Shown piece by piece: positions 3,342 to 33,600 of a stretch of 38,287 nt of DNA; the stretch's first letter is position 1; each line of letters starts with the position of its first letter. The notes below the pieces were generated by a model. It was not told the origin of the DNA. It worked only from the letters and a program-made list of their open reading frames with translations, and made no database searches. The position numbers and the translations under genes are program-made. The stretch is from Anaerolineae bacterium (GTDB lineage Bacteria; Chloroflexota; Anaerolineae; Epilineales; Epilineaceae): contig JAJCYU010000209.1 of assembly GCA_029262755.1 (NCBI GenBank), positions 1-38,287 on the forward strand. The letters run 5' to 3'.

Positions 3342-3350
3342 CGATCTTCG

Positions 3351-3356
3351 CTCCTT
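3351..3356 (-). promoter_or_regulatory. Shine-Dalgarno site (AAGGAG) of the PDZ gene
   Basis: Minus strand reads cctcAAGGAGcgaagatcgATG, a 9-nt spacer to the ATG at 3341. Confidence 0.8.
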
Positions 3357-3440
3357 GAGGATTGAGCGGGGCAGTTCGTCGCTCGGGATGCCACGTTCTC
3401 ATGTCGCGAGGACGGTTCGCGATCCGTCGACGCAAGCAGG

Positions 3441-3449
3441 ACTCTATCA
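3441..3449 (-). promoter_or_regulatory. Candidate extended -10 promoter element (TG-A-TAGAGT) for the PDZ/kinase genes
   Basis: Minus strand TGATAGAGT matches TGnTAnnnT about 100 nt upstream of the PDZ start, downstream of the hairpin. No consensus -35 element. Motif match only. Confidence 0.35.
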
Positions 3450-3523
3450 GCGGCCGGTTGCTCGCCGGTGGAGAGAATGTTAGGGGGTCGCAACACGGCG
3501 CGCGATGTGGGGGGTGGAGAACG

Positions 3524-3567
3524 CCAGTACTCGGCCGCATTGAAGACTCAATGCGGCCGAGTACCGG
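3524..3567 (-). terminator. Long hairpin downstream of the giant gene; probable terminator or mRNA 3' stabiliser
   Basis: Perfect 17-bp inverted repeat GTACTCGGCCGCATTGA (3527-3543) / TCAATGCGGCCGAGTAC (3548-3564) with a 4-nt loop. It extends to 20 bp with a G-U pair on the minus-strand RNA and starts about 55 nt after the TAG at 3619-3621. No U-tract follows. Confidence 0.7.
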
Positions 3568-3618
3568 TACTTCGTCAAGCTTGCCCAGCTACCGCTGCGA
3601 AGCGCACAGCGGTTGGGA

Positions 3619-9600: not shown

Positions 9601-12600
9601 GGGCGTGATCGTATACAGCGGATCACAGCCTAGGTCGCGCACCTCGCCCGCCGACTCCTTGCTGACGCGCAGGTCGCTCACCTCGGTGACCTCATGCTGC
9701 GCAAATGCCTCGTTGTTGGCGAAGTTCTCGTCGTAGTCGTCGTCGCTGCTTACCGAGGCGACGTTGTTGATGCTCACGCCCTCGTCCGCTGTGACCACGA
9801 TCTCGATGATCCAACGGCCCTCGCCGTTCGGTGGGCCGAAGACCGGCAACTCGGTCAGCTCACAGCTGACCGTCGCGCGCTGGGAGATGTCGGTGATCAG
9901 CTCGGCGCCGACACCGCCGACCGCGTTAGCCGCGGTGACCGTCGTCGGGCTGCCGGAGGGTGCTTCGAGCACGCAGCTGGTAGAGCCCGCGAAGTCACCG
10001 GTGATATCCGGGTTGATGGAGACGATGTCGAATACACCGTCCGAGACGATCTCGTCAGTCACGACGACGCCGTGCGCGAAGCTCGGGCCGAGGTTGTCGA
10101 CGAGGATCGAATAGGTCAGCAGCTCGCCCGCGCGCACCGTGCCGTCCGGCTTCCCGAACTTCCGCACGCGCAGGTCGGCTGAGGTCTCGACAAAGGCACT
10201 TGCCACCGTCCGGTTGTTCCCGCTGTTCGGCGCACCCGGGTCGACCGTGTCGTCGGCCGTGGCCACAGACACCGTCGCCATATTCGTCAACCACGTCGGG
10301 TCGGGCACCGGGCCCACGCTCGGCGTAGCATCCGGATCGACCTCTACGGTCACGTCGAAGCTCGTCGATTGGCCGGCCGCGAGCGGCGGCAAGGTGCAGG
10401 TCAATGTGTCCTCCGGGCCTTCGACACAAGCATCGGTGTCGATCTCGAAGGTCACATCGGCCGGCAGGGTGTCGATCACGATCACGGGCGCGGTCGGATC
10501 GCTGTCCGACGGACCGAGGTTGGTGACCTCGAGCGTGTAGACCAGCTCGCGGCCCGCGATCGGTGTCACATCGCTCATGGTCTTGACGATCTCGAGATCG
10601 GCCAGCCGGAGCGCCGTGTGCGCGTTGACCGTGGTGTTGTCGGCCGTATCACAATCGCTCGTCGCGGCGTCCACGGTTGCTACGTTGTCCAGCACGAGCG
10701 CGTTCGCGCCGCCGGGGATGGCGTCGCTGTCAACCAGGGCGTCGATCTGGATCAAGGCGATCTCGCCTACGGCCAGCGCACCGAGGTCGCAGGCCACGTC
10801 GCCGTTGGCCAGAACCGTGCATGGTACGCCCACACCAAGCACCGTTGCCGCGTCGACCGTGACGCCTGCGGGGATATCGTCGGTCAACAGGACCTCCGTC
10901 GCCACACTCGGGCCGGTGTTGGTCACCGTCAGCGTGTAGCGGATGGCCTCGCCCGCGAGCACGCCATCGTCCGGCGTGTCGCTCTTGGAGACCACCAGGT
11001 CGGCGTTGGTGCCAACCACGGTGAGGTTGGAGTCGTAGTTGTTCGGGTTGAGCGGTTCGATGTTGTCGCTGATGGCGAAGGCATCGTTCTCGAGGATCGA
11101 GCCATCCGCCAGCGCCGGATCGACCACCGCGGTGATCGTCACGGTCTCCGTGCCGCCCACCGGGATCGAACCGAGGCCGCAGGTCAGCTTGTCGATGCCG
11201 CTGCCCGCCGTGCCCGTTTCGCAGCCACCGATGGTCGTCTCGTAGCCGGTGACCGTCACGCCGGCCGGCAGCCGGTCGATCAGGATCGCGTTCTCCGCCG
11301 TCGACGGTCCGAAGTTGGTGACCTGAATGGTGTAGGTCATACCGAGGCCGGCGGTAACCTGGTCGGTCACCGGTTCGATGAAGCATGCCTCGCCGACGAC
11401 CTCACCCACCGCCGTCTTCACGACCGCGATGTCGGAGGTGTCGAGGATCTCATGCTCGACGTAGGCCTCGTTGTTGGACGGGTCCGGATCGACGTCGAGG
11501 CTGCTCACGCTCGCCACGTCGTTGATGTCCTGCGTCTCGGGCGCCGTCACCACGATCTCGACCGTCCAGCGGCCATTGCTGCTGCCGGGATCGAAGGTGG
11601 CGAGTTGTGTATCGAGGCGACAGACGACCTCGGCGCGCTGGCTGAAGGTGCCGCTGGTCGGGTCGCAGCTCGCCGCTCCCCCAAAGTCCAGGCCGACATC
11701 GGCGTTGACGCTGACGATGTCGAAGACGCCATCCGAGACGATCTCGTCGGTCACGACCACGCTGTTGGCGAAGCTCGGACCGAGGTTGTCGACGATGATG
11801 GTGTAGGTAAGCAGTTCACCAGCGCGGACCGTCTCGTCCGGCTTGCCGAACTTGCGAACCCGCAGGTCGGCGATGGTCACCACACGGCCGAGCACCATGT
11901 CCATGCTGTTCTCGGCGTCCGGATCCGGCGTGGTGCTCGTCGCGAGCGCCGTATTCTTGACCAGCGTGCCAGGCGTGAGGTTCGGATCGACGTCGGCCAG
12001 GATGGTGAAGCTCTCCATCTGACCGGCGACCATCGTGCCGAATGTGCAGACCACCAAGTCAACGCCGCCCGGGCCGGCACCGGCCAAGATTTGGCAGGTC
12101 GGCGGTGTCGGGTCGGTGAGGACGGCCGTAATGCCCACGGGCAACGTGTCGGTGACCACCACGTTCTCCGCATCGCTCGGGCCGTCATTGGTGACGGAGA
12201 TCGTGTACTCGATCGTGCCGCCGGCGACCGGCTCGTTGGTGCTTGCCGTCTTATCGACCACCAGGTCGGCAACGGTGCCGATCTCGGTCGTCGCATCCGC
12301 CGTGTTGTCTGCAAGACACGGGTCCGTCGTGGCGCTGGTGACGCCGGCCACGTTGCTTATCGGCCCTGCCGGCGCGTCGGCGTCGACCTGACCGTTGATC
12401 ACGATCGTGACCACGGTGCCCGGCGCCAGATCACCCAACTCGCAGGTGATCGCGTCGGTCAGGCCCTCGGCACAGCTTCCAGCCGAACCAAAGACCTGCG
12501 CCGAGACAAAGGTGACGTCCGCGGGCAGGGTATCCGTGACGACCACGTCGCGCGCCAGCGACGGACCGGCGTTGGCCACCGTCAGCTGGTACTGGATCGC

Positions 12601-15600
12601 CTCACCCGCCGTGACGGCGGCCGGACCGGACTTGGTGATCGCCAGATCGGCGCGCGCCTTGGCCTGCGTGAGGTTGGAGACGTAGTTGTCGGCGTTGTCG
12701 TCGTCGAAGTTGTCGCTCAGGGCGAAGGCGTCGTTCTCGAGCCATCCGAGGTCCGGGTAGTCGAAGTCGACCAGCGCATTGACCGTCAGCGTCGCAGTAT
12801 CGCCTACATTCATGTCACCCAGGCCGCAGGTGAGCTTGTCGGCCGCGCTGCCCGGCGTGCCGGTGGCGCAGCGACCACGGTCCAAACTGTAGCCTACCAA
12901 GGTCAGACCATAGGGCAGCCGGTCGGTCAGCTGCACGTTTTCCGCGTCCGACGGGCCGGTGTTCGTGACCACGACGGTGTAGGTCAGCATGAGGCCGGGC
13001 GTCACCATGTCCGGCATCGGCAGCGGCGGTGCGCCACAGGCCTCCGGGCCGACCATACCAACGGCCGACTTGCTCACCTCGAGGTCGCTGACCTCGGTGA
13101 CCTCGTGCTGCGCCAACGCGGTGTTGTTGCTGTTGTCCGGATCGATGTCGCTGCTCGAGACGCTGGCGAGGTTGTTGATGTCCACGCCCTCATCGGCCGT
13201 GACCACGATCTCGACAATCCAGCGGCCGGATGTGGCCGGCGGGTCGAATACGGGCATGTCCTCGCCCAAGGCGCAGCGCACCGTGGCGCGCTGGTTGAGG
13301 TCGGTCTGCGGCGCGGGGGCGTTGAACAGGCCGTTGTTCGGCCCGTCGATCACGCAGGTCGGACCCGCGTAGTCACTGTTCACGTCAGGGTTGATCGAGA
13401 CGATATCGAAGACGCCGTCGCTGACGATCTCGTCCGTAATGGCCACGTTGTGCGCCCAACTCGGGCCGAGGTTGTCCACGATCAGCGTGTAGGTCAGCAG
13501 CTCGCCGGCGCGGACGCTGCCGTCCGGCTTGCCGAACTTCTCAATCCGCAGGTCGCTGACGCTCTCGACGAAGATGTCTGCGTCGTCGATGTTGTTGTCC
13601 GGGTTCGGATCCTCGGTTGCCAGCGGCACGGGAACCTCGGCCACGTTGACCGACGGGCCGAGCGGCGCGTTCTCGAGGACCGCGAAGGTGATCTCGAAGG
13701 TCGAGGACTCGCCTGCCGGCAGCTGACCGATCGTGCACGTCAGCTCGCCCGGCGCGGTCAGCGCACAGTCGTCGCTATCCACCAGGTACGCCAGCACCGC
13801 GGTGTCGAAGGTATCGACGACCACGATGTCGTCCAGGCTGCTGTTGTAATCCGATGGGCCGTCGTTCCAAACCGTGACCGAGAAGGTCACCTGCTCGCCG
13901 GCTACCGGCGTATTGTCCAGCACGGACTTCTCTGCTCGCAGGTCGGTGACGCGCTCGTACTCGACCGGCGCCAAGGCGCTCACGAAGGCTGCGTTGGAGC
14001 CCGCGGCCGCGGCCTCGTTCTCGCCGCTGATGGTGCCGTCCACGTCCCCGGGCGGGATGAGGTTCGGCGGCGCGAAGACCGTGAGCAGGACCTGGACACG
14101 CTCGCCGACCGGCATCGAGCCAAGCTGACACTCGACGATTGCGCTCGGGTTGCCCGGGTTGTCGATGACACAAGAGCCGCCGCTGCCCGCGGGCGAATCG
14201 AGCTGGCCGCGCAGGATCTGCCAGTCAGTGACCAGCAGGCCGGGGAAGGGGAGAATGTCGCCCACCCACACGTCCATGGCCACCGAGGGCCCATCGTTGA
14301 TCAGGAGGATCTCCACCGTCTGGGACTCGCCGGCCGCCAGCGCCGCGGGCTCGACCTCCTTCTCAATCGTGAGCACCGCCAAGCTCTCCACCGTCGACAG
14401 CGTCGAGGCGAAGTTGTTCGCGTTGTTGTCGTCGTACTCGTCCGAGGCCACGTGGACGTCGTTCTCCAGGATCGTGCCGTCCGGCAGGTCGGCGTCGATG
14501 TCCGCGGTGATGACGAAGGTCGCCGACTGGCCCGCGTCCAGCGTTCCGAGACCGCAGGTGAGCTGGTCGAAGGCGCTACCGGCCGTGCCGGTCTCGCAGC
14601 TCCCCAGACCCGCGTCGCCGCTCATGGCGGTGACGACGATGCCCGGCGGCAGCCGGTCGAGCACGGTGACGTTCTCGGCCGTCGACGGACCCAGGTTGGT
14701 CACCGACACGGTCCACTCGATGTCTTCGCCTGCAATCAGGCTGCCGCCGCTTTGGACCTTGTCGATCTCGAGGTCGGCGATGGTCGTCACGTCGTGCAGC
14801 ACCATCGCGCGGTTGTTGTCCTGATCCGGATCCTCGGCCTGGAGGCTGAGCACCGTGGCGGTGTTGTTGATCGACTGATCTTCGTCGGCGGTCACGACCA
14901 CCGTGAGGATGATCTGCTCGTAGACCGTGAGGTCGTCGACCGCGCAGGTCACGAGTACGTCGCCCGGACCGACACCGATGGCCGGGATGGCCAACGGTGC
15001 GCCGGCGGCGTCGAAGATACCGCCGTCGCACACGCCGCCCGTGTCGAATTCGACAATGTCGAAGACGTTGTCGCTGGACAGGATGTCCGTGATCAGGTTG
15101 CCGCGCGCCACGCTGGGCCCGAGGTTGTCGACCACGACCGTGTACGTCAGCAACTCGCCGGCGCGGACGTCCCCGTCCGGCTTGCCGTACTTCTTGATGC
15201 GCAGGTCGGCCAGCTGGGCCACAGCCACGGTCTCGTCGTCGCTGTTGAACAGCGCCGTGCCGTCAGCCAGCGTCCAACCGGTTTCCGCGGTGTTGGTGAT
15301 CGGGCCTTCGGCCGCCGCGTCCACCGCGACGACGATCTCGAAGGTGCCGCTCTCGCCCGGCAGGAGATCGCCGAGCGTGCAGGTCACCGGCGGACCGCCC
15401 GCGCAGGTGGCGGATGTGGCGTAGAGGTAGGTGAACTCGGCCGGCAGCGTGTCGGTCACGACGACCCCGTATGCGGTCGACGGGCCCGGGTTGGCCACCG
15501 TGATCTCGAAGGTGAGCGTGCCGCCCGCCACCGCGATCAGGTTGCCCTGCTCGTCGGTGCCCGCGGGCGTCTGGCTGCGCGAGACCGCCGTCTTGCTGAT

Positions 15601-18600
15601 GGTCACCGGTGCCTCGTAGGCGACGACCGTGCTTTCGGTGGTGTCGCTACCGGCGGCCACCGTCAGCGGTGAGTCGCCGAAGATCGTCAGGTTGTCGGTC
15701 AGCGTCAGCGGACCGGGCGCAGACGGGTCGACGAGGAAGCGCAGCGTCACGACGCGCGTCTCGCCGACGGGCATGTCGCCCAGGTCACAGCGGATGGCGT
15801 TGCCGAGCTCGACCGGGTGACACTCGGCCTCCGGACCGCCGTTGGTCGAGACGTCGACCAATTCCAGGTACTGGAAATCGCTGCCGTGGTTGTCCAGCAA
15901 CCGCACGTTGCGCGCGACGGACGGGCCGTCGTTGCGCGCCACGATGCGGTACTCGACGAACTCGCCGGCGACAACCGGATCCGGTGCGTCCTGCTTCTGC
16001 AGGAAGATATCCGACAGGGCCGCGGCCTCGACCTCGGCGGTGCCGAAGTTGTTGGCCAGGCTCGGGTCGAAGGTGTCGGCGGTGACCGAGGCACCGTTCT
16101 CGAGCTCCGTGCCCGCAGGCACGTCGGCATCGATCCAGGCCTCGAATCGGATCAGGCCCATGCCACCGGCGTTGATCGTGCCGAGGCCGCAGGTGATCAG
16201 GTTGTCCGGCGTCAGCTCGCAGCTGGCCAGGTGGAAGGGATCGTCCACCGTCGCGGTGAGCGAGGTCACGACCACGTTCATCTCGGGCGGCAACGCGTCC
16301 GTCACGATGACGTTCTCGGCCGCCGACGGACCCTGGTTGGTCACGGAGATCGCGTAGGTCACGATCTGCCCGCCGTCCGCCGGGTCACCGACCACGGCGG
16401 TGGTCGACAGCGCGCCGTCGACGCGCTTCTCGAGCGCGAGATCGGCGGTGCCGTCGATGTTCAGCGAGACGTCCACGAAGTTGTTGCTCGGGTCCGGATC
16501 CGTGCCGTCCGACAGGACCCGCGCCTCGTTGTTGAGCGAGATCTCGTCGGCCGCGATGGCCACCAGCTCGATCGTCCAGCGATCGAGCACGCCCAGCGCG
16601 TCCAAGCCGCAGCCGAACTCGAAGAGGAAGTTGCTGTTATTGACCGGCACCGCAGGCGGCACGGCAGGCGTGCAGACGCCGCCGAGGTCTGCCGTGACCG
16701 AGGTCACGGTGTAGGGACCGCTGGCCACCATCGTATCCGTCATCAGGACGTTGCGCGCCACGGAGGGTCCGAGGTTGTCCACGAAGACGGTGTAGGTGAT
16801 GGTGTCGCCGGCCTGCACCGAATCGTCCGGCTTGACGAACTTGAAGATGCGCAGGTCGTTGATGGCCTGGACCACGATCTCGATCATGTCCATGTTGTTG
16901 GAGGTGTCGAGGTCCGCGGTGTCGGAGCTTGTCTCGGCCACGTTCTTGAGGACCGTCTCGTCGGCCACGGCCGGGTCGACGTCCGCGTCGATCGTGATCG
17001 TCCGCATGTCGCCGGCGGCAATGTCGCCGATCGCGCAGACCAGTACGTCCTCGCCGTTCGGTCCCGGCGCGGCCAGCGAGCACAGCCCACCAGTCGAGTC
17101 GGTCACGTAGGTCACTGACACCGGCAGGGTGTCCGTCACCACGACGTTGATGGCGTCCGACGGGCCGAGGTTCGTGACCTTCAACGTGAAGCGCACGTCC
17201 CCGCCGGCCGTCGGCATGTTGTCTTCGACGGTCTTCTCGATCACCAGGTCGGCACCTGTGCCGAGCTCGGTGATGAAGGCGGTGCTGTTGTCGTCCAGGC
17301 ACGGATCCAGCGTCACGCTGCGCACGCCGGCCAGGTTGACCAGGTCGCCTGTGGCGTCCTCGTCAACTACTCCGCTGAGCACGATGGTGGCCACCTGGCC
17401 GGGCATCATGTTGCCCAGCTCGCAGGTCACCGCATCCGTCGGGCCCTCGTTGCAGGCGCCGCCCGCGCCGATCACCACGCTGCCCGTGAGCGTCACCGCC
17501 GCCGGCAGCGCGTCGGTCACCACGACCGTGTGCGCCATCGAAGGTCCGGTGTTCGTCACGACCAACGTGTACTGAATCGGGTCACCGGCCAGGACGCTGT
17601 CCGGGCCGACCTTGCTGATCGCCAGGTCCGCCCTGCCCTCGATCGAGGCCAGGTGGCTGTCCTGGTTGTTGAAGTTGTCGATGTCCAGCACATCGCTGGT
17701 GACGATCACGTCGTTCTCGAGGATCGCCTCGACACCCTGCGGTTCGCTGAGGGTCGGATCCGCCAGCGTCGTGATCGTGACCAGCCGCGTCTCACCGACG
17801 CCGACGTCGCCCAGGCCGCAGGTGAAGCGGTCCAAGGCGCTACCCGGCGTGCCGGTCGCGCAGCTTCCGCCATCCGCAGCGTAGTCGATCACGGTCAGGC
17901 CGACCGGCAAGCGGTCGATCACCTGGACGTTCTCGGCCACGCTCGGACCGGCGTTGTTGATGGTCAGCGTGTAGGTCATCAGCAGACCCGGCGTCACCGC
18001 GTCGTCCAGCTCGAGGATGGTGTCGAAGCAGTCTTCCGGGCCCACCTGGCCCAGCGCCGTCTTGACGATGGACAGGTCGGCCACCTCGGTGACCTCGTGC
18101 TGCGCGAGCGCGGTGTTGTTGGATGCATCCGGATCGTCGTCCGCGCTCTGCGTCGACGCGTAGTTGTTGATGTCCACGCCGTCGTCCGAGCGGACCACGA
18201 TCTCGACCACCCAGCGGCCCTGGCCGGAGCCGGGCTCGAAGAGCGGCAGGTCGCCGCCCAGCTCACAGCTGACCGTCGCACGCTGGCTGATGTCGAAGAC
18301 CGGCGCCGGAGCGCCCGCGCCGGCGGACGGCGGTGCGATGACCTCGCACGCCGGGGCCGGCGGGCCGAAGAAGCTGCCGTTGACGTCCGGGTTGATCGAG
18401 ACGATGTCGAAGACACCGTCCGACACGATCTCGTCCGTGACGAAGACGCTGTGGCCGAAGCTCGGGCCCAGGTTGTCCACGAAGAGCGTGTAGGTCAGGA
18501 GCTCGCCGGCGCGCACGCTGCCGTCCGGCTTGCCGAACTTCAGCACGCGCAGATCCGCCACGGACTCGATGAAGGTGTCCGCGTCGTCGACGTTGTTGGC

Positions 18601-21600
18601 GAGGTTCGGGTCGGTCGTGTCGGCCGGGACCGGCACCTCGGCGCTGTTGGCCACCTGGTTGCCCAGCGGGCTGTTGGCCAGGACGTCGAAGGTGATCTCG
18701 AAGCTGGTCGAATCGCCCACCTCAAGCTGACCGATCGAGCACTCGAGCACACCCGCCGCCGCGAGGGCGCAGGTGTCCGAGTCAACCGCGTAGCTCAGGA
18801 CCGCGATGTCGTAGGTGTCGGTGACCACGATGCCGTCGTCGCCGTTGTAGTCGCTCGGGCCAGCGTTGCTGACCGTGATCTGGTAGGTCACCTGCTCGCC
18901 GGCGACGGGCGTGTCGTCGAGGGCGATCTTGTCGATCGACAGGTCGGTGACGCGGTTGATTGTGGTCTGCGCGCTGCCGTTCACCAGCGGTGCGTTGCTG
19001 CCGTTGGCGCTCACCGCGTTCGTCACCAGGATGCTGCCGTCCACGTCGGCCGCCGGCACCGCGTCGGGCGCCACCGCGACCTCCAGCTGGATGCTGACGA
19101 ACTCACCCACCGGCATGTCGCCGAGCTGGCAACCGACCACGCCGAAGCCGCCGCTGTAGTCCTGGCAGACGCCGCCGCTGCCCGACGGAGTACCCGACAC
19201 GCCGCGCAGGATCTCATAGGACACCAGGCTCATGCCCGCCGGCAGGTTGTCATTGACGAAGACATCGTGGGCCACCGACGAGCCGTTGTTCGTCACGCTG
19301 ATCGCGTACTCGAGCCGCTCACCCGCGATCACCGGATCCGGCGCGTCGCTCTTGGTGATCTCGAGCTCCGCCACCGACGCAATCTCGGTGATCGTGGAGG
19401 CACAGTTGTTCGCGTTGTTGGCGTCGTACTCGTCGCTGAAGGCGCAGGCGTCGTTCTCGAGCAATGTGCCGTCGGGCAGGTTGTCGTCCAGGTCAGCGAC
19501 GATCGTGAAGCTCGCGCTCTCGCCGGCGGCCAGCGTGCCGAGGCCGCAGCTCAGGCGGTCGGCCGCGCTGCCCGGCGTGCCGGTCGAGCAACCCGCGAGG
19601 GTCGCGTCGCCCGTCACGTCGGTGACCGTGATGCCCGGCGGCAGCCGGTCGTAGACGATCACGTTCTCGGCCGTGCTCGGGCCGGTGTTCGTGACCGTCA
19701 CGGTCCACTCGATCGTCTCGCCGGCGATCAGCGTGCCGCCGCTCTGGACCTTGCTGAGCTCCAGGTCGGCCACGGTCGTCACGTCGTGCTCGACGATCGC
19801 GTCGTTGTTGCTCTGATCCGGGTCCTCGGCCTGACCGCTGCCGATGGACACCGTGTTGTTGATCGACTGGTCTTCCTCGGCGCGCACCACCAGCGTCAGC
19901 AGCTGCTGCTCGAGCACGTCGAGCTCGTCGATGGCGCAGGTGAAGACGAAGTCGCCCGGTCCGCCGGTCGTCACGCCCGGCGTGATCGCCGGCGTGATCC
20001 CGGCGTCGCAGACGCCGTTGTCGTCGATCGCTTGAATCGTGAAGACGTTGTCGCTGGAGATGATGTCCGTGATCAACACGTCCCGCGCCACGCTCGGGCC
20101 CAGGTTGTCGATGACCACCGTGTAGGTCAGGTTCTCGCCGGCGCGGACACTGCCGTCCGGCTTGCCGTACTTGCGGACCTTGAGGTCGGCGATCTGCGCG
20201 ACGGGCGTCGACTCGTCGTCCGCGGTGCCCAGCAGCGTGCCGTCGCCCAGCGTCCAGGCCGCGAAGGCCTCGTTGGCGATCGGGCCCTCCGCCGCGGCGT
20301 CCACCGCAACGACGATCTCGAAGCTGCGGCTCTCGCCCGGCTGCAGGTCGCCCAGGTCGCAGGTCACGTCCTGACCGGCCGCCGAGCAGCCGGCCGAGGT
20401 CGAGTAGAGGTAGGTGTAGGCCGCATCCAAGGTGTCGGTCACGACGACGCCGAAGGCGGTCGACGGTCCCGGGTTCTCGACGACGATCTCGTAAGAGAGC
20501 GTGCCGCCGGCCGTCGCGACGATCGTGCCGCCGTCGTCGTCGCCGCCCGGCGTCGTGCTGCGCGAGACGGCCGTCTTGGTGATCTCGACGGGCGCGTCAT
20601 GCTCCAGCGCCACGTCGACGCTGTCGCTGTTGTTGATGGCGCTCGGATCGGTCGTGCCGCTCACGACACTCGCCGCGTTCGTCAGCGGGTTATCGACCGA
20701 GGTCAGGTCGGCGTCGACCAGCGTGTCTACCACGACGCGGACCGTCTCGTCCACGTCCAGGTCGCCGACCGTACAGGTCAGGACGTTCGTGCCCAGCTCC
20801 GTTGCGCAGCTCGCGCCGGCCACCGGCAGGCTCGTGCCGTCCAGGATCTGCGTGCCGGTGACGCTCAGGCCGTCCGGCAGGTCGTCGATGACCACCACGT
20901 CGCGCGCGGTGGACGGGCCGGTGTTGCTGACCACGATGGTGTACTGCAGCGCCGTGCCGGCGGTCACCGTGGCGGGCTGGGCGGTCTTCATCAGGCTCAG
21001 GTCCGCCTCCGGCGTCGCGATGAGCTCGGCCACGCCGTAGTCGTTGCTGTTGTCCGGGTCGGCCGTGTCCGCGCGCACCGTGGCGCCGTTGGCCAGCCGC
21101 GTGCCGGCCGGCACGTCGGCGTCCACCCAAGCCTCGAAAGTCACGGTCACGATCTCGCCGGCGGCCATCGTGTCCAGACCGCAGGCCAGCTCGTTGGCCG
21201 GCGACAGGGCGCAGCTGCCCGCGCCGGTGATGGCGAGGCTCGGCGCGATGACGGTGATCTCGTCCGGGATGAGGTCCGCAATGACCACATTCTCCGACGC
21301 GCTCGGGCCCAGGTTCTCGACCGCGATCGTGTAGGTCACGATCTCGCCGCCGTCGCTCGGATCGCCCACGACGACCGTGTCGGAGAGCAGGCCGTTGACC
21401 CGCTTCTCCAGCTGCAGATCGGCCGAGGAATCGATCAGGATCGCGCGGTCGACACAGTTGTTGCCCGTGTTCGGATCCGTGCCGTCGCTCGTGATACAGG
21501 CCTCGTTGTTGAGCGTGATCTCGTCTTGCGCCTCGGCGATCAGGACGACCTCCCACTCGCCGTTGACCGCGAGCGCGTCGAGCGCGCAGTCGAAGCGGAA

Positions 21601-24600: not shown

Positions 24601-27600
24601 GACCGCCACGTTCTCGGCGGTCGAGGTGCCGTTGTTGGTCACGCCGATCGTCCATTCGATGGTGCCGCCAGCGATCAGGTCGCCGCCGCTCTGGACCTTG
24701 CTGATCTCCAGGTCGGCGACCGTGGTCACCTCGTGCTGCACCAGCGCCTGGTTGTTGCTCTGATCCAGATCCTCGGCCTGCTGGCTGATCACCGAGGCCG
24801 TGTTGTTGATCGACTGGTCCTCGTCGGCCGTCACGATGACGTCGAAGATCACCTGCTCGTAGACCGCCATGTCGTCGATCACGCAGGTGAAGGCGACGTT
24901 GCCCGGACCGACCGTCGCCGGCGTGGCCAGCGAGACGCTGCTGCACGCGCCGCCGGTGTCGATGTCTTCGATGGTGAACACGCCGTCGGAGCTGAGCACG
25001 TCCGTGACCAGGATGCTGCGCGCCACGCTCGGGCCCAGGTTGTCCACGACGATGGTGTAGCTCAGGTTCTCGCCGGCGCGCACGCTGCCGTCCGGCTTGC
25101 CGTACTTGGTGATGCGCAGGTCGGCGATCTGGGCCACGGCGACCGTCTCGTCGTCGCTAGCCGTGCCGCCGCTTCCGGTGCCCGCGGGCGTGGCGTCGGC
25201 GCTCTCCCACGTGACCTCGGCCGTGTTGTCGATCGGGCCCTCGGCCGCGTCGTCGACCTCGACGGTGATCTCGAAGCTGCGGGTCTCGCCGGGCAGCAGG
25301 TCGCCCAGGTCGCAGGTGACCAGCTGCGCCGCCTCGCTGCACGTGGCGGAGGTGGCGTAGAGGTAGCTGTAGGCCGCGTCCAAGGTGTCGCTGACCGCGA
25401 CGTTGAAGGCCGTCGACGGGCCCTCGTTGGTGACGCTCAGCTCGTAGGTCAACGTGCCGCCGGCGACCGCGATCAGGTTGCCGAACTCGTCGGTGCCTGC
25501 CGGGGTCTGGCTGCGGCTGACGGCCGTCTTGGTGAGAGCGACGGCGGACTCGTTGACGACGGCGGTGGTTTCGGTGGTGTCGCTCGCGAACAGGAAGCCG
25601 ACGCTCACCCCAGACCCTGCGGTGCTTACGGTGCCAATTTCGTCGTCCAGTACGAATCCGTCCGGCGTGTTCGGATCGACCGCAAAGCTCAGCGTGAGGA
25701 TGCGGGAACCTTCCACCTCGATCGAGCCGACATCGCAGAAGACGTTAAATGTCACATGATCGGCGTTGCAGTCCGCCTCCCCGCCTGTTAGCCCGAAGGA
25801 CTGAAGCGTCAGGTAGGGCCAGTCGTCGGGCCCGATCGTGTCGTGGATGACCACGTTCGGAGCCGGAGATGGACCCGTGTTGAAGATGACGATCTCATAG
25901 GTGACGATCTCGCCGGCCACCACGGGATCCGGCTCGTCGGTCTTCGTAAGCTCCAACTCCGCGATCGCGAAAGTCTCGACCTCCGCCACGCTGTAGTTGT
26001 TCGCGATGGTCGGGTCGAAGGTGTCGGCCGTGGCCAGCGCGCCGTTCTCCAACTCGGTGAAGTTCGGCACCTCGGCGTCGATCCACGCCGTGTACGTCAC
26101 CACGGCCGTGGCGCCCGCGTTCAGCGTGCCCAGGCCACAGGTCAGCTCGTTGGCCGGGGTGAGCGAGCAGCTCCCCGTGCCGGCCGGATCGCTGACGACG
26201 GCCGTGATGCCGGGCACGTCGACGTTGAGCTCCGGCGGGATCTGGTCGGTGAGGACCACGTTCTCCGCCTGCGAAGGACCGTTGTTGGTGGTCGTCAACG
26301 TGTAGGTGACGATGTCGCCGCCGTGGATGGGATTGCCCACCGTGGCCGTCGTGGCCACCAGGCCGTTCACGCGCTTGTCCAACGCGAGGTCGGCCGTGGC
26401 TTCGATGCGCAGGGCGCGGTCGACGCAGTTGTTGCCGATGTCGGCGTCCAGGCCGTCGGCCACGACGCAGGCCTGGTTGTTGAGCGAGATCGCGTCCTGG
26501 GCCGAGGCGACCACCACGATCTCCCAGCGCCCGAACTGATCGAGCGTGCCGAGGTCGCAGCGGAAGTTGAATTCGAAGTTCGGCCCGCCGGTCGGCGTGC
26601 CGATGGCGGACGGCGCCGCGGCGGCGCAGGCGCCCATGGGCGCGCCGCCGACCGTCGACGTGATCGCCTCGACCACGTAGGGACCGCTGGCGATCATCGT
26701 GTCCGTCACGATCAGGTTGCCGGCCGTGGAGGGGCCGAAGTTGTCCACGAGCACCGTGTAGGTGACCGTGTCGCCGGCGGATGCCTCGTTGTCGGGCTTG
26801 ACGAACTTCTGGATGCGCAGGTCATAGCCGGAGCCGACGATGACCTCGATGGCGTCCGTGTTGTTGTCCGTGTTCGGGTCCGGCGTCTCGGAGCCCACCG
26901 TCGCCGTGTTGGTGAGCGCCGTGCCGTCCGGCACGTCCGCGTCCACCGTCGCGTCGATCGTGAAGCTCGTCATGCCGCCCGGCGGCAGGTCGCCAAGGCT
27001 GCAGATCACCAGCGGCGGGCCGCTGGCGTCGCAGTCGCCGCCCGTGGAGTCGGTCAGATAGGTCACGCCAGAGGGCAGCGTGTCGGTCACGGTGACCGTC
27101 ATGGCCGCCGACGGACCGAGGTTCGTGACCTTGATCGTGTAGCGGACCGTCTCGCCGGCGGTGGGCATGTTGTTGTCCACCGTCTTCTCGATGCGCAGGT
27201 CGGCGCCCAGGGCCACCGCAGTATCGGCCGTGGCCGTGTCGTTGGTGTCACAGGGGTCCACGGTGTCGGTGGTCACGGTGGCGATGTTGCTCAGCGTGCC
27301 GCCGGTGGTCGCATCCACCTGGCCGCGCAGCGTGATGCGCACGACGTCGCCGGGCATCACGTTGCCCAGCTGGCAGACCACGGTGCCGGTAGTCGTCTCG
27401 GCGCAGGTGCCGCCGGCGCCGACGATGCTGCTGCCGGTGAAGCTCACGCCCGCCGGCAGCGTGTCGACCACCTCGACGTCCTCGGCCATCGACAGGCCGG
27501 TGTTGGTGACCGTCAGGCTGTACTCGATGCCCGTGCCCGCGAGCACGGTGGCCGGCGCGTCCTTGGCGATGGCCAGGTCCGCGCGCGGCTGCAGGGTGGA

Positions 27601-30600
27601 GATCTGCGAGGTGGCGTTGTTCGCATTGTTATCGTCGAAGGAGTCGCTGCTTACCGTGACGTCGTTCTCGAGCACGCCCTCACCCAGATCGGCGTCCGCC
27701 AGCGCGCTGATGGTGACCACCGCGCTCGCGCCGACGGCCAGCTCGCCCAGGCCGCAGGTGAAGCGGTCGAGCGCGCTGCCCGGCGTGCCGGTGGCGCAGC
27801 TGCCCTGGTCGGCCGTGTAGCCGAGCACCGTGATGCCGGCCGGCAGCCGGTCCACGAGCACGACGTTGTCGGCCGTGGATGGGCCGCTGTTCGTGGCCGT
27901 GAGCGTGTAGGTGATCAAGCCGCCGGGGGTCACGTCGCCGATGGAGGCGAAGACCGTGCCGGCGCAGTCGTTCGGACCCAGCTGGCCGATGCTTGTCTTG
28001 CTGACCGAGAGATCCGCCACGGCCGTGACCTCATGCTGCACGAAGGCCGTGTTGTTGCCGAAGTCCGGGTCCAGGTCGTCGCTGGAGACCCGCGCGTAGT
28101 CGTTGATGTCCATCGCCTCGGAGGCCGTGACGGCCACCAGGATGGTCCAGCTGCCCTCGCCGTTGGAGGGGTCGAAGACCGGCATGTCGTCCGCGCCGAG
28201 CGAGCAGACCACCTGCTGGCGCGTGGGCGAGATGACGATGACGCTGCAGCTTTCCGTCGTGTAGGTGTCGCCCACGTCCGCATCGGCCACGGCGGTGCTG
28301 AAAGGGCCGTCCGCCACGATGTCGTCCGTGACCACCACGCCGTGCGCGAAGCTCGGCCCCAGGTTGTCCACGATGAGCGTGTAGGTCAGCGTCTCGCCGG
28401 CGGCCACCTGGCCGTCCGGCTTTCCGAACTTGAGCACGCGCAGGTCGGCGTGGGCCTCCACGAAGGTGTCCGCGTCGTCGAAGTTGTTCGCGGTGTTGGG
28501 ATCGGTCGTGGCCGGCGGCTCCGGCACTGTGGCGCTGTTGGTCGTCAGGCCGAGCGGCGCGTCCTCGAGCACGCGGAAGGTGACCCGGAACGTCACGCTG
28601 CCGCCCGCCTGGAGTGTGCCGATGGTGCAGCTGAGCACGCCCGGTACGGTGACACTGCAAGAGTCCGTATCGGAGAGGAACTCCAACACGGCCGCATCGT
28701 AGACGTCGGTCAAGACGATCGCGCCGCTGCCGGGATCGACGTTGTAGTCCGAGGGACCGTCGTTGGAGACGGTGATCTCGAAGGTGACCTCGTCGCCCGC
28801 GATGATCGTGGGGTCGAGCGCGGTCTTCTCGACGCCGATGTCCGTGACTCGGGTGATCGTTTCGGTGTGCGAGTCCGTATCGCCGTCAGCGTTCGAGGCG
28901 GTCGCGATTACCGAGTTTCCGACCGTGGTGTCCCCGGAGATGACGGCGGGGGGCACCGCGTCCGGGCGCACGCGCACGTGCAACGTGATGTGCACCACTT
29001 CCCCGACCGGCATGGCCCCGAGCTGGCAGTTGACACCTAAGCCGCCGAGCGTGCAGGCGCCGCCCTGACCCGCCGTGGTAATGCCCACACCACGGGCGAT
29101 GCTCGTGCCCAGCAGCTCGTAGACGGCCGGCAGCGTGTCCTCGACCGTCACGTCGTACGCCACGGCACTGCCGAGGTTCTCGACGGTCAGCAGGTAGTCC
29201 ATCTCGTCGCCCGCGGCAACCGGGTTCACGCTCGGGCTCTTGGAGACACCGATCTCTGTGAACGAGTTCACGATCGAGATCGTGCTCGCCTGGTTGTTGC
29301 TGTTGTCCGGGTCGAAGGCGTCGGAGCCCGCCCAAGCGTCGTTCTCGAGCACGGTGTCGTCGGGCAGGTCGGAGGGGATGCTCGCGGTGAGGATCGCCGT
29401 CGCCGTCTCGCCCACGGCCAGCGTGCCGAGGCCGCAGCGGAAGAGGTCCGCCGGGTCGCCCGGCGTGCCCGTGTCGCACGAGGCGAGCGAGACGTCGCCG
29501 CCCACCGCCGTCAGCACGATGCCCGGCGGGAGGCGGTCGAAGAGGGTGGAGTTGGGCGCCGTGGAGTCGCCGATGTTCGTCACCGTCACCGTCCACTCGA
29601 CGGTGCCGCCGGCCATCAGGTCGCCGCCCGACTGCGTCTTCGTGATCGCGAGGTCCGCCTCGGCGTCCACCGACAGCACCGCCATCGCCTGGTTGTTGCT
29701 CACATCGGGGTCGGCCGCGTCGGAGGCGATCGTGGCCGTGTTGGAGATCTGCTGCGCCTCGTCGGCCGTCACGCCGATGGTGAAGACGAGCTGTTCGTTG
29801 GGCGCGATGCTCGTGATGTCACAGGTGATCGTCGCGTTGCCGGGGCCGGCCGCGGCCGGCGTGGCCGGCGTCGTGGCGGCGCAGACGCCCTCGGGGTCGA
29901 TGCCCGTGATGGTGAAGGCGCCGTCGGAGCTGATCACGTCCGTGATGATCACGCCCGTGGCCACGCTCGGGCCCCAGTTGTCGACGACGACCGTGTAGCT
30001 GATGGTCTCGCCCGCGGCAACGCTGCCGTTCAGGCCGTACTTCTTGACCGCCAGGTCCGCCACGGCGTCCAGGTTGACCGTCTCCAGGTCGGCGGCGGAG
30101 CCGCCGCTGCCCGTGCCCGCCGCGGTGGCGTCCAGGCTCTCCCACGTGACGGTCGCCGTGTTGTCGAGCGTGCCGCTCGCGGCCTCGTCCACCTCGACGG
30201 TGATCTCGAAGCTCAGGCTCTGGCCCGGCAGCAGGTCGCCCACGTCGCAGGTGACCAGCTGCGCCGCCTCGGTGCAGGTGGCCGAGGTGGCGTAGAGGTA
30301 GCTCAGGTCGGCGTCGAGCAGGTCGGTGACCTGGAGGTTGAAGGCCGTGGAGGGCCCGTCGTTGCTCACGTCGATGCGGTAGGTCAGGTCGCCGCCCGCC
30401 GTCGGCGTGGCGTCGAGGGCGGTCTTCGTGATGCCCACGTCGGCCAGGTGGTCGACGGTGGTGTCCTCGGTGATGTCGGTGAAGGGGCCGAGCGCTATGG
30501 GCGAATCAACATCGAGCGCAAGGACATCGTCCAGGATCGTACCGGCCGGCGTGCTCGGATCCAGCGCGAAGGTCAGGAAGATCGCACGGTTCTCGCCGAC

Positions 30601-33600
30601 CGACAGGTCGCCCAGATCGCATTGCACGCTGTAGGTCACCGGCTCCGCGAAGCATCCCGCGCCGGCGCCACCGGTAATCTCGGCAGCCAGTAGGGTCAAG
30701 AAGGGCCAATCGTCGGCGCCGACGATGTCAATCAGCCGCACGTTTCGCGCAGTCGAGGGCCCCGAGTTCGTCACATTGACGATGTAGGCAACGGTCTCCC
30801 CGGCCACCACGGGGTCGAGCGTGTCGACCTTGCTTATGGTCATCGTCGACAGCGCGGCCACCGTCGTCGGCTCATTCACGTTGTTGTTGCCGTTGTTCGG
30901 ATCGAAGGTGTCCGCGGTGGCCAGCGCGCCGTTCACGATCACGCTGCCGTCCGGCACGTCCGCATCCACGAGGGCCGTGATGGTCACGGTGCCGCTCGCG
31001 CCCACGGCCAGCGTCCCGACGCCGCAGGTGACCTGCTGGCGCCCGTCGCCGAAGGTCTCGACCGTGCAGCTGGGGCCCGCCACGCCGAGCACGTTCAGCT
31101 CCGGCGGCAGCAGGTCCATGAGCACGACATTCTCCGCCGTCGACGGCCCGCCGTTGGTCACGTCCACGGTGTAGGTCACCGTCTCGCCGGCCGTCACCGG
31201 GTCCGGGTCGTCGCTCTTGGTCACGACCAGGTCGGCCTCGGCCGTCACCTGGATCGCGCCCGCGGCGAAGTTGTTGCTCGTGTCGCCGTCGACGGCGTCG
31301 CTGAAGACTAAGGCCTCGTTGTTGAGCGAGATCGCCTCGTCGCCGGCCTCGGCCACCACCACGACCTCCCAGCGCTCGAAAGCCGCCAAAGAGGCGAGGC
31401 TGCAATCCACCTCGGCGCGATAGTTCGGGCCCACCGTGTCGGTGGCCAGGCCGGGCGCGGTGGTGCATGCGCCACCCTGGTTGTCCGTCACGGCCACCAG
31501 CTGGTAGAGGCCGTCGGAGACCATCACGTCGGTGATGCGCACATTGGCCGCGGCGGACGGCCCGAAGTTGTCGACGATGAGCGTGTAGGTCACCAGGTCG
31601 CCGGCCGCCACGGAACCGTCCGGCTTCACGAACTTCTGGATGCGCAGGTCCGCCGCGCCGTTCAACGCGGTGAGCAGCGTGTCCGAGTCGTTGGCCGCGT
31701 TCGGGTCGTCGACGGTCGGCGAGTCCACCTCGACGACGTTGGTCAGGAAGTCACCCGAGGCGTCCTCGGCCACGTTCACGGTGATCTCGATCACCACGCT
31801 CTCGTCCGGATCCAGCGCCAGCGGGCCGCATTCCACCACGCCCGTGCTGGGCTCGCTGCACACGGCGCCGGAGGCGAAGACGAAGGTGGTGCCCGCCGGC
31901 AGGGTGTCCGTCACCAAGGCATCGGAAACCGCGCTGGGGCCGTCGTTCGTCACGACGATCTCGTAGGTCAGGCTCTCGCCGGCCACCGCCGGATTCGGCT
32001 CGGCCGTCTTGCTCACGCCGAGGTCGGCGCTGGCCTGGACGGAGGTCGCCTCGCTCGCCGTGTTGTTCGTGTCATCGGTCTCGCCGCCGTCCGAGGAGAC
32101 GCCGGCCGTGTTGGTGAAGACGTCGGTGCCGGCCGGGGTGGCCGGATCGACGAAGGTGTCGAGCAGGATGGTGCGGGTGTCGCCCGCGTCCAAGGTGCCG
32201 AGCGAACAGCTCAGGAAGGAGGGCAGGGCGAAGCCGCAGCTCTCGGTTCCCGTGCCGCCGATCACGTTCACGCCCACGAAGCTCAGCGCAGCGGGCAGGG
32301 TGTCGGTCACCACCACGCCCGTGGCCGCGGAGGGCCCGGCGTTGCCCACCTGGATGACGTATTGCAGGGCCGCGCCGGCCGTGACCGGGTCCGGCGTGTC
32401 GCTCTTGGCGATCACCAGGTCCACCTCGGTCTGGACCGTCACACAGGCCTGCGCGAAGTGGTTCGTCGAATCGTCGTCGAAGGCGCCGCTGGAGGCCATC
32501 GCGTCGTTGCACAGCAGCGTGCCGGAGACGATGTCCGTGGCCACGGGGCCACTGATGGTGATGGCGCGGCTCTCGCCGTCCGCCAGAGTGCCGAGCTGAC
32601 AAGTAACCTTGCCGCCCGCGCCGAGCGTGCAGCTGCCGCTGGGCGAGGCCGAGGCGCCGGTGGGCGAGATGCCGGTGGGCATCTGGTCCATGACCACCAC
32701 GTCGGGCGCCGCGGAGGGGCCCGTGTTGGTGACCTGCAGCGTGTAGGTGATGGTGCCGCCGGCGATCTTGACGGGCTCGTCCGTGCTCTTGCTGAGCGCC
32801 AGATCGGCCGAGGCCGTGATCTCGCGCTCGGCCATGGCCATGTTGTTGGTCATGTCCGGGTCGTCGCCGTCGTGGTCGACGGTCGCGGAGTTGTTGAGGC
32901 TGATCGCCTCGTCCGCCACCGCGGTGACCTCGACGATCCACGTGCCGTCCTGGGCGGCGTTGTCCGGCGCCAGGAAGGGCAGCGTACAACTGATGCTCAG
33001 CTGGTTGCCCGCGGAGGGCACGTCCGGCGGGCTGGGCGGCGTGCAGGCCTCGCCCGTCTGGTTGCTCAGAACGTCCGCATCGATGCCGGTGACGCGGAAG
33101 GCGCCGCTGGCCACCATCAGGTCGTTCAGGAAGACGTCCGCGGCCGTGCTGGGGCCCAGGTTCTGCACCACGAGCGTGTAGGTGACGGTCTCGCCCGCCA
33201 CGATCTCGCCGTCCGGCTTGCCGAACTTGGTGATCTTGAGGTCCGCCGTGGCATCCAGGTTGGTGACGGTGGGCGGCGGGTCGTTGTTGGCCGGGTTCGG
33301 GTCGGGGATGCCGGAGAGGCTGCCGACGCCGACCGCGTTGCTGACGGAACCCGCCGCGTCGTCGTCAATCTCGACCACGATCTCGAAGCTCAGGCTGCCG
33401 CCCGCGGCGACGGCGAGCGGGCTGCAGATCACTTCGTCCGCGCCGCCCGGGCCGGTGCCCGCGCTCAGCACGCAACTGGGGTGCGTGGCGTAGAGGAAGG
33501 TCGCCTCGAGCGGCAGCACGTCCACCACCTCGGCGTCGGGCACGTCGGAGGGCCCGTTGTTGACGACGGTGACGGCATAGGTCAGCTCACCGCCCGGAAC

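Follow-up and report, generated by a model that had tools for sequence, protein, structure and literature searches.

A nested domain array in a giant bacterial gene

We analysed a 38,287-nucleotide stretch of Anaerolineae DNA (contig JAJCYU010000209.1, hereafter the window), which makes up the entire contig C209 of a metagenome-assembled genome (428 contigs, 5.06 Mb, 84% complete) and is largely taken up by a single gene for a giant protein built of DUF11 domains. The open reading frame (ORF), defined from the ORF list, its translation and Pfam matches, lies on the minus strand at 3619..38286, running from position 38286 to 3619 as 11,555 codons plus a stop that stay open over 34.7 kb. It has no start codon inside the contig and its N-terminal end lies beyond the contig edge; the protein is thus longer than 11,555 residues, with an estimated mass of ~1.2 MDa. 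Pfam DUF11 (PF01345) is matched in 29, 28 and 18 stretches (75 in all) over three overlapping pieces of the protein, with an E-value of 0, and the related Pfam families DUF7507, DUF7619 and DUF7927 are also found. A profile hidden Markov model built from 56 of the protein's own domains divides the sequence into 79 domains, each opening with an ADLxIxK-type motif, and the full protein thus contains at least 79, followed by a C-terminal module. All features of this gene given below are on the minus strand.

The central part of the gene, 11872-31653 (amino acids (aa) 2212-8805), corresponds exactly to domains 17-64, that is, to 48 domains or four times twelve. These domains fall into four-domain units (tetrads) with positions A, B, C and D, and three kinds of tetrad, X, Y and Z, succeed one another in each of four super-repeat copies. 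Copy 1 (26827..31653; aa 2212-3820) is made up of X1 (30061-31653), Y1 (28450-30060) and Z1 (26827-28449), and copy 2 (21856..26826; aa 3821-5477) of X2 (25126-26826), Y2 (23509-25125) and Z2 (21856-23508). Copy 3 (16861..21855; aa 5478-7142) contains X3 (20191-21855), Y3 (18559-20190) and Z3 (16861-18558), and copy 4 (11872..16860; aa 7143-8805) contains X4 (15211-16860), Y4 (13558-15210) and Z4 (11872-13557). Within a single copy, the NCBIfam model TIGR01451 is matched in 12 stretches.

Similarity among domains peaks at a distance of twelve

Super-repeats of immunoglobulin (Ig) domains in titin are higher-order molecular rulers of muscle and match the thick-filament repeat. An initial annotation of the window had proposed a titin-like organization for 11872..31653, with X, Y and Z tetrads cycling four times at a period of 1609-1665 aa, and our segmentation, lag identities and class trees agree on this arrangement. 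The X tetrads start at aa 2212, 3821, 5478 and 7143, which gives spacings of 1609, 1657 and 1665 aa.

We aligned all 79 domains pairwise and took means for each lag (distance in domains) inside domains 17-64. The mean reaches an identity of 0.577 at lag 12 and falls to 0.542 at lag 24 and 0.499 at lag 36, compared to 0.38-0.39 at lags 4, 8, 16 and 20 and 0.30-0.34 at the remaining lags. Identity at lag 12 exceeds that at lag 4 for 35 of 36 domains (Wilcoxon p = 9e-11) and that at lag 8 for 34 of 36 (p = 3e-7), so the outcome that would have spoken against the proposal, a domain i no closer to i+12 than to i+4 or i+8, was not observed. Compared with the whole protein, 45 of the 48 domains find their best match at a multiple of 12. 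The exceptions are XC3, which is described below, and ZA1 and ZB4, whose best matches are domains 69 and 66, both Z-like domains of the region that trails the array.

Autocorrelation along the residues gives the same picture. The three highest smoothed peaks stand at 1655, 3319 and 4969 aa, and the top 14 further include 549, 1107, 137 and 279 aa; peaks at ~135, ~545 and ~1650 aa had been predicted. The array thus follows the titin-type super-repeat pattern, with domain i closest to i+12, beyond its similarity at shorter lags. It likewise shows the multi-domain units defined by Bjorklund, Ekman and Elofsson (2006), with maxima at distances of 4 domains (549 aa) and 12 domains (1655 aa). The proposed three-level hierarchy of one, four and twelve domains is real, as seen both in the lag means (12 versus 4 and 8 versus the others) and in the class clades described next.

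Domain classes, their motifs and their exceptions

In trees built for one position (A, B, C or D) at a time, each of the twelve classes forms its own clade, with XC3 as the only exception. The class motifs named in the initial annotation all recur in the class alignments, in all or nearly all copies. X tetrads carry KFVKPD, and their D domain (XD) contains YLY[AS]TSAxC plus a Trp. Y tetrads are marked by KYG, K[VT]QSGG..EW, RG..G.GG.C and GPSDYN, and Z tetrads by KFGKPD..GPS[FW][AG]H, by a loop in ZB that carries a third Cys and by the ZC motif D[PF]C. Conservation is unequal among positions, from 0.59-0.77 for YB, which is 133 aa long in all four copies with zero indels, to 0.31-0.44 for XC.

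XC3 (domain 43, aa 5761-5897) is a generic C-type domain that has replaced the expected one. Its best match is domain 7, at 0.46, and the XC class model does not recognize it.

ZB and ZC (for example, 22234-23076 on the minus strand) contain three Cys each in four of four copies, the odd Cys being that of the loop GQVGPEDC in ZB and that of the D[PF]C motif in ZC. The presence of an unpaired Cys in each of two neighbouring domains suggests a candidate disulfide between domains or between chains. Disulfides between nearby Ig-like domains have been reported for the giant surface protein GhpA (bioRxiv 10.1101/2024.01.29.577165).

The array is very unlikely to be an assembly artefact

Four similar blocks in a metagenome contig could in principle be mis-joined contigs from different strains or paralogues. 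The bin is indeed fragmented and incomplete, the gene runs past the contig end and sequencing depth is low (~6-10). On the other hand, the copies are just 61-70% identical in nucleotides (highest, 0.695, for the copy 2-3 pair), too unlike to mislead an assembler, and the frame is open throughout. A scan with the class models furthermore found the X and Y classes in no other gene of the genome.

Contigs from a separate assembly of sequencing run X1 tile the stretch with zero mismatches. One of them (25073-28657) covers the junction of copies 1 and 2 and others cover several tetrad junctions; the junctions of copies 2/3 and 3/4 are not covered among the 8 pieces listed for this run, which has 530 further pieces. 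Run X1 is probably the sample of origin, and these contigs thus represent an independent assembly rather than independent data. Two sequencing runs of a single study, to which a third run is also assigned, were listed as containing portions of the stretch. The pieces from run X2 measure only 151-176 bases, too little for comparing copy number. Taken together, we consider a mis-assembled array highly improbable.

The four copies are old and have mosaic histories

Copy 1 is the first branch of its class clade in 7 of 12 classes, and copies 2 and 3 frequently pair up as sisters. XB and XD have insertions behind their first strand in copies 2-4 only, and XA and YB have an additional pair of Cys in copies 2 and 3 only. 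As shared derived features, these insertions and Cys pairs fit a tree-like history.

Quartet analyses of individual positions give differing groupings. At XD, all 500 bootstraps recover the split 12|34, as do 484 of 500 at ZD; the split 14|23 is recovered in 494 of 500 at ZB, 445 of 500 at XA and 421 of 500 at YD. XD2 (25126-25539, minus strand) combines two affinities, with copies 3 and 4 through its N-terminal insertion and with copy 1 through its C-terminal third, so that it looks like a recombination junction within one domain. Mosaic histories of this kind imply that the array was reshaped by unequal crossovers or gene conversion, and staggered crossovers or conversion thus have to be added to any account of its growth.

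A possible substrate for such exchanges is found at the start of the A domains. Their first ~90 nucleotides are 76-80% identical across tetrads throughout the gene (examples are 8360-8452, 18467-18558, 23417-23509, 25034-25138 and 33155-33251), and the same holds in paralogues on other contigs. These segments may be a hotspot or substrate for unequal recombination, which would favour units in multiples of four domains.

Synonymous differences bear on the age of the copies. At identical residues, four-fold degenerate third positions differ by 0.411 at lag 12, 0.433 at lag 24 and 0.500 at lag 36, compared to a background of 0.43-0.48 at lags 1-8 and an expectation of 0.557 from base composition alone. 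Between copies, synonymous divergence has thus reached background or come close to it, and the copies are old. Non-synonymous differences amount to 0.31-0.36 between copies, rise to 0.46 for lags 4 and 8 and are largest, 0.52-0.53, for lags 1-3. That position-specific residues have been kept despite synonymous saturation indicates purifying selection since the duplications, though purifying selection is expected of any folded domain and hence provides no proof of a function for the period. Nei-Gojobori estimates of the ratio of non-synonymous to synonymous substitution rates (0.57-0.71) were set aside because synonymous sites are saturated.

The domains resemble cross-linked CLIPPER beads

DUF11 has recently been renamed CLIPPER, and the structure of one domain that belongs to a fibrillar adhesin of a Gram-negative bacterium (9IFR) contains an isopeptide triad of Lys715, Asp748 and Asn806 (Protein Sci. 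2025, PMC12617251). We built an AlphaFold2 model of YB2 on an alignment of 74 domains of the giant protein, obtaining nine strands and a predicted local distance difference test score of 96. Foldseek searches with this model returned integrin alpha Ig-like domains, with template modelling (TM) scores of 0.76-0.82, and the solved CLIPPER domain 9ifr (E-value 1.6e-7, TM 0.67/0.72). Going by these matches, the beads are predicted to have the CnaA-like Ig beta-sandwich fold of CLIPPER domains. A PDB sequence search with a whole super-repeat copy returned no match.

In the same 74 domains, the triad columns hold Lys in 74, Asp in 73 and Asn in 66 (the remaining 8 have Asp), with spacing like that in 9IFR. 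Both members of an invariant Cys pair are present in all 74. Every bead thus probably carries one isopeptide bond and one disulfide, judging by residue positions. A homo-trimer prediction with three copies of YA2-YB2 on an 18-row alignment scored 0.00 and 0.00 against a mark of 0.42 and counts neither way on binding.

Two giant surface proteins provide a frame of reference. GhpA of Aureispira (5,898 aa, PDB 9flp) forms 240-nm heptameric grappling hooks (bioRxiv 10.1101/2024.01.29.577165), and a profile of the giant protein's domains matches one GhpA domain with an E-value of 1.2e-12. GhlA of Litorilinea aerophila (Chloroflexota; 6,596 aa, 49 DUF11 domains) forms filaments of ~180 nm with probable C3 symmetry (bioRxiv 10.1101/2025.08.19.671072, PMC13319060). 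Scaling from the reported GhlA dimensions (180 nm over 49 domains) gives ~3.7 nm per bead, from which 79 beads would extend ~290 nm, a tetrad ~15 nm and a 12-domain unit ~44 nm. The initial annotation had put the period at ~50 nm, and the GhlA scaling suggests that it is probably nearer 44 nm. Given the Lys-Asp-Asn positions and the invariant Cys pair in each bead, the chain would most likely form a mechanically robust stalk of at least ~290 nm.

Regions flanking the array, the C-terminal module and paralogues

On the N-terminal side, a partial domain and tetrads W1-W4 (31654..38280; domains 0-16, aa 3-2211, from the profile segmentation) precede the array. These tetrads keep the A-B-C-D pattern and do not belong to classes X, Y or Z (class-model scores of just 53-118 bits), and their domains find their best matches inside their own block at lag 4 or 8 (for example, 0.65 between domains 8 and 16). 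Five other contigs end in DUF11 ORFs that are open C-terminally and were considered as carriers of the missing N-terminus, but no pairing was possible; the three compared (C62, C239 and C101) match the first tetrads of the giant protein at a mere 0.37-0.45.

On the C-terminal side, tetrads T5 and T6 and domains A and B of T7 (7399..11871; domains 65-74) follow, as assigned by class models and trees. The claim that three more Z tetrads trail the array holds in part. Among T5-T7 (aa 8806-10296 and further), domains A and B are Z-like and score 130-215 bits with the ZA and ZB models versus 234-271 for true Z domains, but domains C and D are generic or divergent. Four divergent DUF11-like domains come next (5518..7398; domains 75-78, aa 10297-10923), with weak seed-model scores of 11-46 bits and Pfam matches to DUF11, DUF7507 and DUF7927.

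The protein ends in a module of ~640 aa (3622..5550; 643 aa in the family scans) for which Pfam, NCBIfam and PDB sequence searches returned no match. This module stands at the extreme C-terminus of ~26 ORFs of the genome, which range from less than 700 to more than 11,555 aa, and is present in 37 of 41 related genomes. Among 80 loci kept as carriers, nearly all are labelled Anaerolineae, Ardenticatenales, Caldilineae or Candidatus Epilinea, with one labelled Gammaproteobacteria and a few just 'bacterium'; going by these record labels, the module is confined to Anaerolineae-type Chloroflexota. In its AlphaFold2 model (predicted TM score 0.84), beta-sandwiches are packed together. The segment of residues 220-331 is similar to TM1070 (Z 12.6) and to the Anabaena sensory rhodopsin transducer (Z 8.8), and Foldseek with the whole model found no global match (TM <= 0.14). 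The module may serve as an anchor or an adhesive tip.

A paralogue lies on contig C44 and is a 4,834-aa ORF with four to five tetrads that most resemble the trailing T tetrads. Its domains match TA7 at 0.71-0.78 and TD6 at 0.58-0.71, and its C-terminal module is 69% identical to that of the giant protein. This likeness points to a shared ancestral design of T-type tetrads plus module and indicates that the fourfold X-Y-Z array is an expansion specific to the giant gene. Contigs C237, C236, C296 and C57 of the same genome also encode DUF11 giants, with monotone repeats.

Downstream of the giant gene on the same strand, positions 1740-3341 encode a 533-aa protein with three PDZ domains, in which Pfam and NCBIfam detected no protease domain. 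Positions 1-1695, also on the minus strand, encode a HAMP/HisKA sensor histidine kinase that is cut by the contig end.

Multi-domain periods are common among long DUF11 proteins

We looked for orthologues with X or Y tetrads in several collections. A six-frame search of 16 further genomes of the family gave none (best 38-42%), and none turned up among proteins of 2,901-5,000 aa (best 38%), among proteins of 5,499-17,499 aa (best 37%, with nothing longer than 7,928 aa returned) or in metagenome contigs (5 loci, all 32%).

The same lag analysis was applied to other long DUF11 proteins. Word-sharing searches returned 215, of which 212 have at least 16 domains; the sample is not random and contains none longer than 7,928 aa. 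In this sample, 80 of the 212 show a multi-domain period, within a range of 2-24 domains: 19 proteins have a period of 2, 12 each have periods of 3 and 4 (the latter not counting the giant protein), 6 have 5, 5 have 6 and 10 have 7. Longer periods are represented by 4 proteins at 8, 1 at 9, 3 at 10, 2 at 13, 5 at 15 and 1 at 24. Nested periods occur only in P0152 and P0156, both with levels of 1, 2 and 4. Individual examples include P0172 (period 5, 0.77 versus a base of 0.55), P0121 of Enemella evansiae (7,034 aa; period 7, 0.63 versus 0.42) and P0211 (period 10); a period of 15 occurs in four Bacteroidota proteins, and P0190, P0196, P0183 and P0187 are also listed with strong super-repeats.

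The initial annotation had regarded such a pattern as undescribed in DUF11 proteins, and our search of the literature, with supplements outside its scope, likewise turned up no account of such super-repeats, whether for DUF11 proteins or for bacterial adhesins. The survey suggests that periods of several domains occur often in the DUF11/CLIPPER family and have gone undescribed. The pattern of the giant protein is not unusual in kind, considering the frequency of such periods in the sample and the fact that the general growth pattern has been published.

These data bear on the idea that selection against misfolding has kept the nested pattern, since safe folding would need unlike neighbours and only large blocks of unlike domains would survive duplication. 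In the giant protein, neighbour identity is 0.32 and the nearest close relative of a domain is 12 domains away, and Bjorklund et al. remark that selection against aggregation may favour the duplication of several domains (PMC1553488). Many surveyed DUF11 giants, however, tolerate neighbour identities of 0.5-0.8 (for example, 0.80 in P0105 and 0.78 in P0098), which argues that unlike neighbours are not strictly needed. We thus regard this selection as a rather unlikely explanation of the pattern; it is also compatible with growth by block duplication and does not provide an alternative origin.

A second idea, that the period itself is functional, would make the array a ruler or periodic scaffold whose ~44-nm unit of twelve surfaces places partners or sets the register or stagger of chains. 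It could draw on the formally titin-like similarity at lag 12, on the persistence of position-specific residues at saturated synonymous distances, on the unequal conservation of positions, with the indel-free YB as its extreme, and on related DUF11/Ig-like giants, which are described as building filaments of three or seven parallel strands, where register is of consequence. Several observations stand against it. There is no known partner, lattice or periodic density, and none of the orthologue searches yielded a protein with a conserved period. The array has accepted the swap of XC3 for a generic domain and a variation in copy length of more than fifty residues (1609-1665 aa), and its mosaic histories indicate ongoing shuffling. 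The periods of other DUF11 giants, finally, show no preferred value, which fits chance duplication units better. A ruler function consequently appears improbable to us.

Probable growth by old, nested block duplication

We consider it probable that the array is the product of old nested block duplications in a gene for a giant extracellular fibre, where it provides a mechanically robust stalk, and that no periodic function is required. Most likely, then, the titin-like pattern records old block duplications rather than a proven ruler. The initial annotation had offered a record of block duplications as one of two options, and this option is well supported by lag identities, best matches, class clades and quartets, with the refinement that growth was old and mosaic.

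Under this scenario, an ancestral four-domain A-B-C-D unit would have multiplied and diverged into the tetrad types W, X, Y, Z and T. A 12-domain X-Y-Z block would then have been duplicated as a block until four copies lay in the middle of the array, and further unequal recombination or gene conversion between copies would have produced their mosaic histories. The conserved A-domain starts could have served as the recombination substrate, keeping units in fours. Duplication would mainly lengthen the stalk, while keeping neighbouring beads dissimilar. The protein as a whole, from an uncultured member of the Chloroflexota related to Anaerolineae, would probably form a very long surface fibre: a stalk of at least 79 DUF11/CLIPPER beads, closed off by a beta-rich module specific to the lineage.

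Several points weigh against this account or narrow it. No single tree holds across the twelve positions, and a clean series of whole-block duplications is thus too simple. Saturation of synonymous sites bars a quantification of selection, and the searches yielded no orthologue carrying X or Y tetrads against which the timing of the duplications or the conservation of the period might be judged. The unequal conservation of positions would also fit functional specialization. A surface location rests on family resemblance, the N-terminus being beyond the contig, and Pfam and NCBIfam found no known sorting or anchoring domain in the C-terminal 643 aa. As for expression, no RNA run is among the listed runs that contain the stretch.

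If old nested duplication is the correct explanation, very long bacterial surface fibres can grow in the way that muscle giants do. The array also offers a natural case for studying bead-chain extension, with twelve distinguishable, probably cross-linked bead types present four times each. Knowledge of multi-domain periods in the DUF11/CLIPPER family should be useful for annotating giants and for choosing fragments for structural work. Should a periodic function be found, the array would be the first bacterial molecular ruler of its type.

Comparison with known systems

The giant protein shares with the titin A-band and nebulin beads that are closest at a fixed lag, nested levels of repetition and growth by multi-domain blocks. 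It differs from them in being bacterial, in consisting of a single domain family (DUF11/CLIPPER) and in having a period of twelve built from tetrads. Unlike titin and nebulin, it has no known partner filament that matches its period and no orthologues that show the period to be conserved.

Bjorklund, Ekman and Elofsson (2006) found that domain repeats usually grow by several domains at once and in the middle of the array, as revealed by autocorrelation, with the seven-domain unit of nebulin as one example (PMC1553488). The giant protein resembles these repeats in that similarity among its domains, by autocorrelation, is highest at unit-sized distances and duplications lie mid-array. Their study covered 24 proteomes, mostly eukaryotic, and two nested unit sizes (4 and 12) in a bacterial protein are not described in its accessible text.

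CLIPPER fibrillar adhesins share with the giant protein the Pfam family, the CnaA-like Ig fold, the positions of the Lys/Asp/Asn triad and the use of tandem domains as a stalk, as far as the published account extends (PMC12617251). The giant protein is distinguished from them by the invariant Cys pair in every domain and by a number of domains far beyond the typical. In the part of the chain covered by the contig, no signal peptide, adhesion domain or known sorting domain can be pointed to.

GhpA and GhlA are the nearest counterparts in architecture, each being a giant single chain of ~50 or more Ig-like/DUF11 beads, where the protein described here has at least 79, and GhlA comes from the same phylum as its host. 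Each GhpA or GhlA chain is reported to span a whole surface filament, as the giant protein may do too, and the accessible text of the two reports describes no super-repeat. The ends of the chains also differ. GhpA has a type IX secretion sorting domain, which Pfam and NCBIfam do not find in the giant protein; GhlA is reported to have an N-terminal hydrophobic anchor and both GhpA and GhlA an N-terminal hook region, which in the giant protein would fall beyond the contig. The giant protein, in turn, has a different C-terminal module and is nearly double in length.

By analogy with GhlA and GhpA, the four 12-domain units could form the axial code of a multi-stranded filament, setting the register of parallel chains or docking accessory proteins every ~44 nm along a fibre of more than 290 nm. 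We think this improbable; if true, it would be a bacterial counterpart of the titin ruler. Regardless of any periodic function, the giant protein is a striking and unusually elaborate bacterial case of a known mode of repeat growth.

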